A DNA stretch of 64,000 nucleotides. It comes from a virus. Its lineage: Duplodnaviria > Heunggongvirae > Uroviricota > Caudoviricetes. The translations under genes were made by a program, and so were the position numbers. The notes beneath the pieces are model-generated. The model made no database searches and was not told the origin of the DNA. It saw only the letters and a program-made list of their open reading frames with translations. The DNA lies in the IMG/VR virus record IMGVR_UViG_3300031087_000527, positions 81,384 through 145,383 of that record. One strand, given 5' to 3'. Below, piece by piece: positions 6,599 through 64,000 of the stretch; position 1 is the first letter of the stretch; every line of letters begins with the position of its first letter.

Positions 6599-7195
6599 AT
6601 GAGAGAAAAGATTATGATGGATAAGTTGAATGATAAATCGCTGGATGAAACGGTAGCTAAAATGTTTTTTGGCTGGTCTTTATCGTATAGCTCTGGACCA
6701 ACCTTTATGACTAAAAAAGCGCGTGAAGCGGCGCAATGGGTTGTGCGTAAAACTGAGCCTCCATTTAGCGCATTGAACGGTGAGTCAGTTTGGGAAGGTT
6801 CTACACCTTTTGAAGCGCTGGGTAAAGCAGTTGCGGCGTTTGATGTGAAAGTTAAGCCAGTAGTGGATGATGGCATTGAATATAATGAAGATGCTATCCT
6901 TGATGCGGGTGAGGTATTGAATGTTATTTATAATATTAATGCCCAAAATGAAGGCTATGATGATATTTATAAGGTGACTAACATCCTTAAAGACATGATG
7001 GGGAAATATACTGATCCCGATTCTGATTTGGTTGAGGCGAGTTTTCAGCAGTTTTTAGATGTTGTGAGTTCGAGTGAGTATATTCATGAGGTTGTTGAAG
7101 AGAACGCAAGCTTTATTAATTTTCTGCGTAATCAGGTTGTTGATGAGAATTACACATTATGTCATCATATCATTAAAAACGAACCAACGCTGTAA
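6599..7195 (+). CDS. Hypothetical protein
   Basis: ORF track; own promoter and terminator. Confidence 0.75.
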   Translation: MREKIMMDKLNDKSLDETVAKMFFGWSLSYSSGPTFMTKKAREAAQWVVRKTEPPFSALNGESVWEGSTPFEALGKAVAAFDVKVKPVVDDGIEYNEDAILDAGEVLNVIYNINAQNEGYDDIYKVTNILKDMMGKYTDPDSDLVEASFQQFLDVVSSSEYIHEVVEENASFINFLRNQVVDENYTLCHHIIKNEPTL

Positions 7196-59709: not shown

Positions 59710-59786
<77 letters not shown>

Positions 59787-59805
59787 CTTTTACTAAGGAG
59801 TTATT

Positions 59806-59967
59806 ATGTGTGCTGATAGTTGGTCTTTAGAAAAAGGTGAGGTTGCTGATGGTGTATGTCCTGATTGTGAAATGGATACACTTGATGGATATGCTGTGGA
59901 GGGATGTAATTATTCTCCGGTTGTATGTGAAACGTGCGGACATGCTCCGTGTGATGCTTCTTGTTAG
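59806..59967 (+). CDS. Cys-rich mini-protein (53 aa)
   Basis: AAGGAG RBS; CPDC, CETC and additional Cys. Confidence 0.7.
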   Translation: MCADSWSLEKGEVADGVCPDCEMDTLDGYAVEGCNYSPVVCETCGHAPCDASC

Positions 59968-59972
59968 TGAAA

Positions 59973-60048
59973 GGCCCCTTAGCTCAGTGGTTAGAGCAGG
60001 CGACTCATAATCGCTTGGCCGTTGGTTCAAGTCCAACAGGGGCCACCA
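59973..60048 (+). tRNA. tRNA(CAU), Ile2 (ileX-like)
   Basis: GGCCCCT acceptor, GGCGA-CTCATAA-TCGCT arm, nearly the enterobacterial ileX sequence as I recall it. Confidence 0.92.
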
Positions 60049-60130
60049 ACACTTCATATTCTCCTATGTGGGTGTTCTTTACTGCTTGTGTTAAAAAATA
60101 AGTAAAGGAAGCTGGTTAACTTCCTTTTAT

Positions 60131-60216
60131 GCCTCAGTGGTGAAATCGGTAGACACAAGGGATTTAAAATCCCTCGGCTTATGGCTGTACCAGTTCGAGT
60201 CTGGTCTGAGGCACCA
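60131..60216 (+). tRNA. tRNA-Leu(UAA)
   Basis: Type II body, loop TTTAAAA, long variable arm, CCA. Confidence 0.93.
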
Positions 60217-60244
60217 AAAAAGCAATAAAAAGTTGAAAAAAGAG

Positions 60245-60273
60245 TTGTGCATCATGATAGAGTTTGATATGAT
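60245..60273 (+). promoter_or_regulatory. Promoter of distal tRNA/tRNA-like cluster
   Basis: TTGTGC-N17-TATGAT; related to promoters at 59588 and 62960. Confidence 0.75.
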
Positions 60274-60317
60274 GATGTTCTTGATGTGAAGCAGTAAATA
60301 GTTGATTTAAAAGTAAT

Positions 60318-60394
60318 GCGCCGTTAGTTCAGTTGGATAGAACAACCGCCTTCTAAGCGGTAGGTCGCTGGTTCGAGTCCAGCACGGTGCACCA
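60318..60394 (+). tRNA. tRNA-Arg(UCU)
   Basis: GCGCCGT/ACGGTGC, ACCGC-CTTCTAA-GCGGT, CCA. Confidence 0.95.
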
Positions 60395-60399
60395 GAGTT

Positions 60400-60721
60400 T
60401 TCCGGTATTGCTGGTTAAACTTGTCTTATTTAGGTTGTAACTTAAAAAATTCATCCTTCTGATAAAAGTGTACAAAGCTTAACAGTTGTGAAACAGGTAA
60501 GCTTTATTTGGCCCGTTAGCTCAGTTGGTAAGAGCAATCGACTCATAATCGAGAGGTCGCTGGTTCAAGCCCAGCACGGGCCACCAAATCTGTGATATAT
60601 TTACGATGGCTACATCTTGCAAAGATGCGCCAGAAATAAATAGAGGTTTCTTTAATGGGTGGAGCTTTCGGGCGTTGAACCCTGTTAAAAGAGAATCACT
60701 TTCGGACGCCAGTAACCGGAA
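60400..60721 (+). ncRNA. Structured RNA region enclosing the tRNA at 60510
   Basis: Long-range helices 60400-14/60709-21 and 60458-70/60697-706 plus internal hairpins. Confidence 0.45.
60510..60586 (+). tRNA. tRNA(CAU), probably Ile2
   Basis: GGCCCGT/ACGGGCC acceptor, loop CTCATAA, CCA; Met identity not excluded. Confidence 0.9.
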
Positions 60722-60728
60722 TATTTAT

Positions 60729-60951
60729 GTCTCCCTTAGCTCAGTGGTAGAGCCGGGGCTGTAGTTGACAGTGGTTGCGAGATAAAAAGATATTTACGTT
60801 AATCGATGCGTATCAGTTCAAGTCTGATAAGGCTCCAGTAGGAAGCCTTTAGCTCAATGGTAGAGCCTTGGCGGGAAGTTTCCGTGGTCGAGTAAAGAAG
60901 GTGTTATCTCAATAGCAATGCGCGTTGGTTCGAATCCAACAGGGGACACCA
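60729..60951 (+). ncRNA. Two-headed tRNA-like RNA (outer tRNA domain plus inner circularly permuted tRNA domain)
   Basis: Two D-arm/T-arm units whose acceptor and connector helices pair only crosswise; ends in ACCA; no anticodon loop. Confidence 0.8.
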
Positions 60952-60953
60952 AT

Positions 60954-61033
60954 AGGAGAGTGATGGAAGGGGTAGACATCTCTGAAAGGAGTGGCGGCAG
61001 TCATTGAAGGTTCGAATCCTTCCTCTCCAACCA
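60954..61033 (+). ncRNA. tRNA-like RNA with truncated, GAAA-capped anticodon arm
   Basis: GGAGAG/CTCTCC acceptor, D arm, TCT-GAAA-GGA, TGGC-GGCA-GTCA variable arm, GAAGG-TTCGAAT-CCTTC, ACCA. Confidence 0.75.
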
Positions 61034-61040
61034 ATAAAAT

Positions 61041-61175
61041 GGTTTTTTAGCTCAGTTGGTAGAGCGCGAGCGCCAAAAGATCGTTTCTACTTCGGTAGAC
61101 AGCTCCGGCTGGTCAAATGACAACGATTCGATCTTAGGCCAGAGGTCGCTGGTTCGAGTCCAGCAGAAACCGCCA
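61041..61175 (+). ncRNA. tRNA-like RNA with multibranched insert replacing the anticodon arm
   Basis: GGTTTTT/AGAAACC acceptor, canonical D and T arms, GCCA end, about 75-nt folded insert. Confidence 0.8.
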
Positions 61176-61595
61176 GTATTTTTAATCTTTATTTCATTAA
61201 AAAGCAGTATCTTTTCATTAAATCAGCAACGAACGTAACAGTTTTTATTTAGATTTTTATATTGCTGTCAAATACCCATTTTTCATCCATAAAACCATTC
61301 CAGCTATACTTTTCACCTGTATAATTCTCATTTACTTTCACGATATGTTTTTCATATTTTCAGTACATCATTTTAAAGTTCGTTTAAATTGTTAATTTTT
61401 CACAGAAAGCATGTAATGCGTGATTTTTCTATTTTTACTTCTTTCGCCATTATAACTCGTTTAAATTATGTAATAACAAGTTATTCGACCGTTTGTCTTT
61501 CTTTATTGCTTAATTACTATTATTTACTGGTGTTTATTTTATTTTATTTTATTTTATTTTATATATTAATTATTATTTATATTAAAGGGCAAGAA

Positions 61596-62111
61596 ATGAA
61601 AAGAAATAAAAAAGGATTTTCCTTATTAGAGTTACTCTTAACGTTAGGAATCATAGCGGCATTAATAATAGCGGCTTTCATCGTATATCCTAAAGTTCAA
61701 GCGGCTCAAAGAGCGGAATCAGAGTTAAAAAATGTTGCAACTATACAAGCAGGCGTTAAATCTCTTTATAGCGGAATGGCAAATTATCAGGGGCTTAATA
61801 ATAGTGTTCTTATCAATGCTAATGTATTTCCAGAAAACTTACTAAAAGATGGAGATTCTGGAACACAAGCAGTAAATGCATTTGGTGGTAATGTAGAAGT
61901 AAAAAGCACATCTGCTTCTGGAATAGCGGATGCGGGGATTTCTATAAAATATTACAATGTTCCAAGTGATGAGTGTATAAGAATAGCAACAGCATTAGCT
62001 AATAACGTATCCTCTGTGCGAATTAATAACATAGCTACAACGTATACTTCGTTATTGGCGACAAAATGCAGTTCCACTAATAGTAATACTATCGAAATAG
62101 TGTCTTTATAA
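61596..62111 (+). CDS. Type IVb major pilin (PilS-like prepilin)
   Basis: KKG-FSLLE prepilin cleavage/methylation motif, hydrophobic helix, AFGG.V, YYNVP.DEC, C-terminal Cys pair. Confidence 0.88.
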   Translation: MKRNKKGFSLLELLLTLGIIAALIIAAFIVYPKVQAAQRAESELKNVATIQAGVKSLYSGMANYQGLNNSVLINANVFPENLLKDGDSGTQAVNAFGGNVEVKSTSASGIADAGISIKYYNVPSDECIRIATALANNVSSVRINNIATTYTSLLATKCSSTNSNTIEIVSL

Positions 62112-63085: not shown

Positions 63086-64000
63086 CCGTTCTTTTAAATA
63101 TGATCAAACCTGATCATGAACGTATAAAGCAGGTTGTGAACTAACATCAACCTCTTTTTTCCTGCTAGCACTATTCCCCTTCACAATGAAAGAAAACTCG
63201 TTAGCACTTTTTATTTTCTGAGGATTATTTAGCTTTAACCTGTTTTCTAACAGCGTTTTGCCACAAATCACTCCCGGAAAAGCTACCTTAACATGATTCA
63301 CCGCCGCATTGATATCTGCATTTATCACGGTGTTCAACACGCTGTCCCGGAACAACCCTCTCGTTATTTTCCCTTTCTTTACACCACGAACACCATTCAG
63401 TTCAGCAGGCGTAATCGGCTCTTTTCTCAAAGCCATTTGTTTTACTTTATTCACATCAGCCGTCAGGCTGCTTGTCTTCGATGTATAGCTTTCATCTATA
63501 TTCACCACGTCAATACCATACTTTATCGCTTTCTCTTCAAGTAGATTTAATAAACGACCAAAGGGAATCTGGTAAAACTTCTGTTTCGTTTTCTTATGCT
63601 GCTTGATGTTTCCACTGGTCTTTACAAAAGACAGATTTTTAGAAATCACCAAATCAGAAACCGCATTGGTTTTCAGATAAGAAAGTAATGCCGAAGACAG
63701 CTTATTCATCTCTCCGTCAAAGAACTGGTTGCGTGCGTTAAACATATTGCTCATTTGCTTTCTTATATGCTGCCCATAAGACGTATATTTCTCAGGAACC
63801 TGAGAAACCGAGCCGTCTTTTTTAGTAATCTCCCTGTATTCAGCCACGTGCCTTGACAGCTCGTTGTTTAACTTAGCCATGTGTTTATTAAAGGAGCAGT
63901 TATAATGAATCATCTTAGCATTACGATAAACCACGGAGTCGGTATCGCTATCATTAACAAACAATGAAAACAAATGATGCAAGCCAATATCCAAGCCAGC
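63086..64000 (-). mobile_element. Second IS607-like tnpB element, runs off the window
   Basis: Right end identical to copy 1 up to the GG (CC at 63086-87 on plus strand), then diverges. Confidence 0.75.
63104..64000 (-). CDS. tnpB: TnpB-family endonuclease, 5'-truncated by window end
   Basis: AGLDIG...IDESYTSK...NADINAAVN; 23 substitutions over about 295 aligned aa versus copy 1 (manual count). Confidence 0.9.
   Translation of the reverse strand, partial: AGLDIGLHHLFSLFVNDSDTDSVVYRNAKMIHYNCSFNKHMAKLNNELSRHVAEYREITKKDGSVSQVPEKYTSYGQHIRKQMSNMFNARNQFFDGEMNKLSSALLSYLKTNAVSDLVISKNLSFVKTSGNIKQHKKTKQKFYQIPFGRLLNLLEEKAIKYGIDVVNIDESYTSKTSSLTADVNKVKQMALRKEPITPAELNGVRGVKKGKITRGLFRDSVLNTVINADINAAVNHVKVAFPGVICGKTLLENRLKLNNPQKIKSANEFSFIVKGNSASRKKEVDVSSQPALYVHDQV

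Follow-up and report, generated by a model that had tools for sequence, protein, structure and literature searches.

The 223-nt stretch at 60729-60951 is a real structured RNA gene of a giant phage from plant-associated samples, and its architecture is unusual and apparently unpublished. Two homologous tRNA-derived units are joined in one RNA, and their acceptor and long-arm strands pair across the units and not within them, as had been claimed in a preliminary description made from the sequence. Very probably, the RNA forms one rod with a tRNA-shaped body at each end, the strands being swapped between the two tRNA-derived halves. As that description had also held, the outer body is CCA-ended, the inner one is closed and has its tRNA parts in circularly permuted order, as YrlA RNAs do, and the element is non-decoding, with no anticodon loop anywhere in it.

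The window, i.e., the whole stretch of 64,000 nt that was analysed, corresponds to G000:C1:81384-145383 of the 259-kb IMG/VR virus record IMGVR_UViG_3300031087_000527 (CheckV completeness, 91%). Judged by one neighbouring gene, the closest cultured relatives of this phage are RaK2-like jumbo phages (44% protein identity). The hosts of this phage lineage are probably Enterobacterales associated with plants. The 223-nt element closes a phage tRNA array consisting of tRNA-Arg, Met, Leu, Arg, and Met at 59710-60586 (ARAGORN and Rfam). The array is followed by a 142-nt spacer, the element, and two anticodon-less tRNA-like units at 60954-61035 and 61041-61175, the former beginning 3 nt past the CCA of the element. 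The proteins encoded upstream were assigned by Pfam as a lactonase, a 5'-nucleotidase, and an NMN-adenylyltransferase-like protein, and those downstream as a PilS/bundlin-like pilin and TnpB. No RNA-binding partner was suggested by the Pfam names near either copy of the two-headed RNA (a paralog is described below) or by the PHROG matches elsewhere in the window. Besides, a promoter/terminator scan gave no convincing promoter of its own for either copy; the TTGACA inside hairpin 1 is not kept in the paralog.

Several features around the element were recorded in their own right. The spacer between tRNA-Met and the element (60587-60728) is near-identical in the second phage contig L016, with a few substitutions and a 1-nt indel that breaks a 52-aa ORF (60606-60764). 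It is covered by RNA-library contigs, its fold is not distinctive (z-score, -0.9), and it might serve as a leader or represent another small RNA. The unit at 60954-61035 has acceptor, D, and T arms and an ACCA end with an aberrant anticodon region; it scored 28.2 bits on the tRNA model, just below the gathering score, was not called by ARAGORN, and is 86% identical to genes annotated as tRNA-Ser/tRNA-Undet in Shigella phage Ag3 and Enterobacter phage EspM4VN. The 135-nt tRNA-like RNA at 61041-61175 scored 43.6 bits and has an encoded CCA; its anticodon arm is replaced by a 74-nt three-hairpin domain inside an AAGATCG/CGATCTT stem, and over ca. 117 nt it shows 84% and 79% identity to unannotated sequences of Escherichia phage Jgk1, a phage of N4-like size, and of Pseudomonas phage Littlefix, respectively. 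Directly after the RNA cluster lies the gene of the PilS/bundlin-like type IV pilin with an N-terminal methylation motif (61389-62111), followed on the minus strand by the tnpB gene (OrfB_IS605/Cas12f-like TNB; 63104-63994). Outside the window, ARAGORN called in the same phage record a tRNA with a four-base anticodon (agaa; G000:C1:155071-155147) and a tRNA with the anticodon CTA (amber-reading, labelled Pyl; G000:C1:248866-248939), which are possible frameshift or stop suppressors.

Units 1 and 2 share one order of parts: an acceptor strand, TA, a D arm with a GCTC/GAGC stem, C-NN-G, a 5-bp hairpin, GG, a strand of ca. 31 nt, TGCGY, a T arm, and an acceptor strand (Table 1). The long strand of unit 1 forms four helices (4, 7, 5, and 4 bp) with that of unit 2. 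These are TTGC 60775-78 with GCAA 60915-18, GAGATAA 60779-85 with TTATCTC 60904-10, TTTAC 60793-97 with GTAAA 60892-96, and TCGA 60803-06 with TCGA 60888-91, and together with both acceptors they were found where the preliminary description had placed them. The same is true of the interruptions of the rod, namely, a central loop of 7x7 nt and two bulges, GTTAA and AATA. In the inner acceptor, AAGGCTCC (60829-36) pairs with GGAAGCCTT (60841-49), and this helix and the adjoining T stem make an 8 + 5 bp coaxial stack of tRNA length. In each of the three sequences compared, the outer head shows T as base -1, an acceptor of 7 bp, a T stem of 5 bp, canonical loops with GG and TTCGAAT, and A73-CCA. 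No stem carries a 7-nt anticodon loop: the loops of the extra hairpins are 4-5 nt, the rod ends in the inner head, and removal of the inner part leaves a 4-bp stem with a 4-nt loop.

Table 1. Parts of the two-headed RNA, with positions in the window.
Feature	Positions	Strand	Pairing, conservation, or basis
Whole predicted mature RNA, 223 nt	60729..60951	+	unit 1, 60729-60840; unit 2, 60841-60951
Outer acceptor 5' strand, T60732 bulged	60729..60736	+	pairs with 60941-47; base -1 (60728) is T
D arm 1, GCTC/GAGC stem, loop AGTGGTA with G18 G19	60739..60753	+	stem invariant
Extra hairpin 1, D arm 1/rod junction, 5 bp, 5-nt loop	60758..60772	+	loop sequence varies
Rod strand from unit 1 (R1-R4), with 7-nt side of central loop and bulge GTTAA	60775..60806	+	pairs with 60888-60918
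TGCGT connector, read as variable loop of inner head; T60811 is position 48	60807..60811	+	invariant in all copies
T arm 1, ATCAG/CTGAT stem, loop TTCAAGT	60812..60828	+	pair probability 0.94
Inner acceptor hairpin, 8 bp, A60843 bulged, loop AGTA (60837-40)	60829..60849	+	comparison and YrlA alignment
D arm 2, GCTC/GAGC stem, loop AATGGTA	60852..60866	+	sequence, fold, and three-sequence alignment
Extra hairpin 2, D arm 2/rod junction	60871..60885	+	fold and three-sequence alignment
Rod strand from unit 2 (R4'-R1'), with 7-nt side of central loop and bulge AATA	60888..60918	+	three-sequence structure counts
TGCGC connector, read as variable loop of outer head; C60923 is position 48	60919..60923	+	invariant
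T arm 2, canonical loop TTCGAAT	60924..60940	+	pair probability 0.96; stem covaries
Outer acceptor 3' strand (60941-47), then discriminator A and encoded CCA (60948-51)	60941..60951	+	ACCA invariant in three of three sequences

Minimum free energy (MFE) folding without constraints recovered both acceptors and both T arms as well as the rod. This bears out the arrangement given in the preliminary description, although the MFE z-score of the element was weak (-1.6). Joining units 1 and 2 yielded -11.5 kcal/mol as compared to -6.0 ± 3.2 kcal/mol in shuffles, and 16 of 300 segment shuffles matched the observed value. With an energy gain only marginally above that of shuffles, thermodynamics by itself would give a weak case for the joined fold; the case for a fold beyond chance is made by the comparison of three sequences and not by thermodynamics.

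The comparison set consisted of the element, a paralog, and an ortholog, i.e., three sequences from two phage genomes (alignment A1, 63-pair structure). The paralog (218 nt, 82% identical) is located 20 kb off in the same phage record (G000:C1:162018-162235; L002:1496-1713), where it stands alone among protein genes with no tRNA called nearby by ARAGORN. Since the paralog sits outside the tRNA array, the two-headed RNA is taken as a discrete gene. The ortholog is found in the same array context on the minus strand of a second IMG/VR phage contig (L016:677-899). The preliminary description had staked its fold on compensatory changes in homologs, and such changes were present: 99.5% of the cells were paired in the 63-pair structure, and both sides had changed in nine pairs, which, coming from three sequences of two phage genomes, represent few independent events. 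The double changes fell in the outer acceptor (1), R2 (2), R3 (1), R4 (1), the inner acceptor (1), hairpin 1 (1), and T stem 2 (2), five of the nine lying in helices that exist only across the units. In the paralog, two C-G pairs of the outer acceptor differ, one having become U-A by a double change and the other U-G; hairpin 1 carries a U-A to C-G double change, and T stem 2 two double changes. The inner acceptor has a C-G to U-A double change in the ortholog and one mismatch in the paralog, and the rod has four double changes, in R2, R3, and R4. None of 500 shuffles reached the observed values of pairing and double change, and sliding the partners by 1-3 columns lowered pairing to ca. 40%. 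Separate folding of the units was less well supported: that model gave 94% pairing, and its own helices contained 12 unpaired cells and no double change.

The changes are not spread evenly over the RNA. The inner head (60807-60866) is identical at 56 of 60 positions between the paralogs, while the stems elsewhere covary. R1, GG, and both TGCGY connectors are invariant between the paralogs. Variation, mostly compensated, is seen in the hairpins and the centre of the rod as well as in T stem 2 and the outer acceptor. The central loop is 7x7 in the element versus ca. 5x1 in the paralog, and the rod length also differs. Judged from these alignments, the heads and junctions look constrained in sequence and the rod only in pairing, and the spacing between the heads looks not to be fixed. 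A covariance model (R1) built from A1 scored 279, 230, and 278 bits on the element, the paralog, and the ortholog, respectively, as compared to at most ca. 40 bits on ordinary tRNAs.

Both heads of the element carry the tRNA core (U8, A14, G18 G19, A21, T54 T55 C56, A58, and G53-C61). In the outer head, G60744 of D loop 1 and C60923 give G15-C48, and in the inner head, A60857 of D loop 2 and T60811 give A15-U48, both of which are Levitt combinations. Because these standard 15-48 combinations arise only when the D loop and the variable loop come from different units, they point to heads assembled across the units. Chen et al. made the same 15-48 argument for YrlA (PMC4201824). The 15-48 match favours reading TGCGY as a 5-nt variable loop, the rod as the equivalent of the anticodon stem, and the hairpin as an additional arm located at position 26. 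If only the order of the arms is considered, the hairpin might equally be what is left of an anticodon arm, the rod then being a long variable arm. The earlier statement that a permuted module occupies the anticodon slot of the outer tRNA thus holds only if TGCGY is read as the variable loop; by arm order, the extra hairpins could take that slot. Of the two elbows that had been described, the outer one stood, with G19-C56 kept in three of three sequences. The inner one is less secure, as its 19-56 combination is G-C in the element, G/A in the paralog, and A/A in the ortholog, C56 being replaced by A in both. A precise two-elbow geometry therefore seems unlikely from the sequences compared, since the inner 19-56 combination varies and the rod length and central loop differ between the paralogs. 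A rigid bivalent scaffold is likewise disfavoured by the variable rod geometry. Unit 2 closely resembles tRNA-Met (59973-60048) in its T arm and 3' end. No claim is made on the ancestral isotype of the units: alignments with the neighbouring tRNA-Met gave two conflicting short homologies (hairpin versus rod), and the 5' half of unit 2 matched the D arms of several isotypes in blastn.

No Rfam family was found to fit the element; the preliminary description had made its case depend on the absence of such a match. At gathering thresholds, the sole match was a borderline one to tRNA (RF00005) on unit 2, with 29.4 bits against a threshold of 29 and a 45-nt insert; unit 1 scored 18.9 bits on the same model. 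With permissive settings, YrlA (RF02553) gave a partial match of 25.1 bits (E = 0.006 in a 721-base search; gathering score, 69), in which 60811-60866, i.e., T arm 1, the inner acceptor, and D arm 2, aligned to model positions 30-81, and the D arm matched the consensus. ARAGORN made no tRNA or tmRNA call for the element and none for the paralog locus. The Ro60-binding motif GNCGAAN0-1G is missing from all three sequences. The preliminary description had proposed a search for Ro60/Rsr; neither a TROVE (Ro60/Rsr) nor an RtcB gene was found in the 259-kb, 91%-complete phage record, the controls of these searches being positive. A CCA-adding enzyme was likewise not found in the phage record.

Similar DNA was not found by blastn in GenBank phages or PLSDB plasmids, and pattern scans of IMG/VR yielded nothing besides the ortholog in L016 and the paralog. 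A pattern scan of JGI metagenomes gave chance matches only, one of GTDB genomes gave no homolog, and a protein-anchored search with the gene upstream of the paralog gave no further homolog. With covariance model R1, the element was absent from the related jumbo-phage records G002-G006, and no further rod-linked form was present in 44 of 119 IMG/VR loci having a T arm followed by a D arm. Those 44 loci proved to be ordinary or tandem tRNAs together with a few closed-acceptor modules. The latter are YrlA-type modules of T arm, closed 6-8-bp acceptor hairpin, and D arm on other IMG/VR phage contigs (L165:951-1031, L170 at ca. 6950-7020, and L103 at ca. 1690-1760 on the minus strand). A related 341-kb phage has a 122-nt single-headed tRNA-like RNA (L065:1501-1622, minus strand; G002:C1:181003-181124) whose acceptor is normal and whose anticodon slot is taken by a hairpin of 6 bp and a 4-nt loop; a second, long arm and a T arm follow. 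In appearance it corresponds to a single unit of the two-headed RNA that has folded back on itself. In the literature searched, no description of a double-headed tRNA-like RNA was found, and the two-headed design is not covered by a 2026 preprint in which three other bacterial families of tRNA mimics are treated.

Part of the stretch occurs in 20 public runs from 18 studies, and 11 of these runs contain at least half of its sampled words. They are phyllosphere, plant, seed, food, and insect metagenomes, together with some runs that have coded organism names. Two seed metatranscriptome runs of one study contain contigs of 594 and 604 nt that are unbroken from the upstream tRNA or spacer to 60950 and then join directly to 61037-61175/61180. 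This join implies a relative without the unit at 60954-61035, which corresponds to an 86-nt skip in the relatives from the two RNA runs. Molecules, or DNA, that bridge the inner loop thus exist. A loose contig end with paralog-type letters indicates that paralog-type sequence is present in the RNA library too, and no cover was seen in the RNA runs past 61371, where the relatives diverge. In the two RNA runs, the contig of the element was ca. 8-10 times deeper than that of the neighbouring gene upstream (494 versus 62 in X5 and 723 versus 69 in X16); in DNA run X4, the depths were 19.5 and 20.5, respectively. These depths give a weak hint of accumulation as a stable RNA, as contigs give neither the ends nor the strand of an RNA and could originate from DNA.

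The best explanation overall, on which our judgement is evenly balanced, is a single non-decoding RNA of ca. 223 nt that is strand-exchanged, tRNA-processed, and a tRNA mimic. Its open, tRNA-like head with the CCA end would be made of the 5' end of unit 1 together with the 3' end of unit 2. The other two ends, 3' of unit 1 and 5' of unit 2, would make up the closed T-acceptor-D head, which is of the YrlA type, and the long arms of both units would pair into an interrupted rod of ca. 20 bp. The RNA would be transcribed together with the phage tRNA array, excised like a tRNA by an RNase P cut at 60728/60729 and trimming of the 3' end to the encoded CCA, and would then accumulate as a stable RNA. 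Maturation of the outer head in the manner of a tRNA is probable; the U at -1, the 7 + 5-bp coaxial stack, and the encoded RCCA are the reasons why RNase P cutting, trimming, and stability are expected. The RNA would act by tRNA mimicry, occupying or diverting proteins that read the acceptor/T-arm helix and the elbow without entering decoding, of which it is incapable because it has no anticodon loop. Candidate targets would be tRNA-directed host defence enzymes and tRNA maturation or modification enzymes. As there is no anticodon loop to offer to anticodon nucleases, a decoy would by pure inference be aimed at acceptor- or elbow-binding factors. Such a decoy or mimic function is put forward tentatively, and its likeliest specific protein contact would, from the conservation pattern, be the near-invariant inner head. 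It is also conceivable, though on balance doubtful, that large phages carry an undescribed class of two-headed tRNA mimics, of which the 223-nt rod-linked form is one lineage, and that these engage the tRNA-binding machinery, e.g., by neutralising immunity enzymes that act on the acceptor or elbow or by spanning both sites of a dimeric tRNA enzyme.

The tRNA-like ends might instead serve merely as handles for processing and stability, allowing excision by RNase P and shielding from exonucleases, with any function residing in the rod, bulges, and hairpins or with no role in trans at all. This reading would suit the position of the element, which lies in a tRNA array with further anticodon-less tRNA-like units immediately behind it. 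Protection by a tRNA fold has been discussed for YrlA by Chen et al. (PMC4201824). A role of this kind has also been proposed for the stable RNAs of the T4 tRNA cluster. However, we regard it as unlikely: the rod centre (7x7 versus ca. 5x1), hairpin loops, and bulges are the least conserved parts between the paralogs, the inner head and the junction connectors are nearly invariant, and the paralog is kept outside any tRNA array. A two-piece complex, which we consider quite improbable, would arise if RNase P also opened the inner loop before G60841 or G60842, giving two RNAs of ca. 110 nt that remain paired, so that either head would have free ends; the new 3' end would be trimmed and CCA-tailed, as in YrlA of M. 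smegmatis. The inner stack of 8 + 5 bp has the length found in a tRNA, and none of the three sequences has lost the closing GG:CC pairs. [quoted passage not shown] Against this stand the RNA-library contigs that bridge the inner loop, though precursors or DNA could explain them, and the distortion of the inner stem by the bulged A, to which a mismatch is added in the paralog. Besides, CCA is not encoded at the inner 3' strand, and the phage record yielded no CCA-adding enzyme, although that of the host could serve. In a two-piece complex, the 8-bp inner stem ending in G:C would resemble the G-1:C73 mark of histidyl-tRNA synthetase, a likeness confined to that one base pair and the 8-bp stem.

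Two further explanations have little in their favour. One is that the element is a Y RNA of the YrlA family working with Ro60/Rsr of the host or of the unsampled part of the phage genome, as might be supposed from the YrlA topology of the inner head, its alignment to model positions 30-81, and the match of its D arm to the YrlA consensus. This is very improbable, because the score of 25.1 bits is far below the gathering score of 69, the ends form a CCA-ended acceptor stem and not a Ro60-binding stem, GNCGAAN0-1G is absent from all three sequences, and the 91%-complete record contains no TROVE or RtcB gene. The other is that the units are decaying tandem tRNA pseudogenes, or an intron-bearing or permuted tRNA gene giving rise to a decoding tRNA. 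The units do resemble neighbouring phage tRNAs, as in the T arm and 3' end that unit 2 has in common with tRNA-Met, and unit 2 barely attains the gathering score of the tRNA model in Rfam. Nevertheless, the cross-unit helices are maintained by compensatory changes, neither unit closes an acceptor stem of its own, and ARAGORN calls nothing. Since a decoding product would be without an anticodon loop even in the excised form, with its 4-bp stem and 4-nt loop, this origin too is hardly to be expected.

The YrlA RNAs (RF02553), tRNA-like Y RNAs of bacteria and mycobacteriophages, share with the inner head the order of a stem strand, a short variable loop, a T arm, a closed acceptor hairpin, UA, a D arm, and a stem strand, as well as the Levitt-type 15-48 match and a head sequence that is near-invariant between copies. 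A similar conservation pattern, with a near-invariant head and covarying stems, was described for the YrlA effector module by Chen et al. (2014; PMC4201824) and Wang et al. (2018; 10.1101/312249). In YrlA, however, the ends form a Ro60-binding stem with its motif, and the gene lies beside rsr and often with rtcB, whereas in the element the ends form an open, CCA-ended second head. YrlA also lacks the extra hairpin, one of which is present in each head of the element, and the element has neither the motif nor a Ro60 gene in its record. With tRNA (RF00005), the outer head shares the 7-bp acceptor, the discriminator and CCA, and the D/T elbow, and differs in that the 5-bp/7-nt anticodon arm is absent. 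The tRNA-like domain of tmRNA and the viral 3' tRNA-like structures have in common with the element the mimicry of acceptor and T arm, the CCA end, and the lack of decoding, whereas the element has no G3:U70 (outer 3-70 is C-G), no mRNA-like part, and no pseudoknotted acceptor. Permuted and split tRNA genes of the Cyanidioschyzon type retain an intact anticodon arm and have their halves rejoined, unlike the element, which has no anticodon arm in either head.

The stable RNAs known as species 1 and 2 of phage T4 (rnaC and rnaD) are non-decoding, lie within a tRNA cluster, are presumably matured by the tRNA machinery, and have no known function. To our knowledge, no double-headed, strand-swapped architecture is known for them, and their likeness to the element is limited to the setting in a phage tRNA cluster. 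The topology of the element recurs in the same phage, in a 147-nt RNA (G000:C1:250104-250250) in which, by folding, an outer CCA-ended tRNA body encloses a T arm, a closed acceptor, and a D arm. This RNA is compact and shows no sequence similarity to the element or the paralog, which are distinguished from it by their length of 218-223 nt, the ca. 20-bp rod, the central internal loop, and the extra hairpin in each head.

Taken together, the element falls within the tRNA-mimic and YrlA-like RNAs, and its fusion of a CCA-ended with a closed YrlA-type head is apparently unpublished. Mobile elements repeatedly use tRNA mimicry to exploit or obstruct the machinery of translation and tRNA processing, and a connection is now being drawn between the tRNA clusters of phages and their escape from host defences directed at tRNA. 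The two-headed RNA is present in two copies in one phage and is supported by covariation. If it were bound by defined host or phage proteins, it would represent a new structural class among tRNA mimics, place YrlA-type modules in a Ro60-independent context, and offer a tractable handle on the role of the many anticodon-less 'tRNA' genes of jumbo phages.
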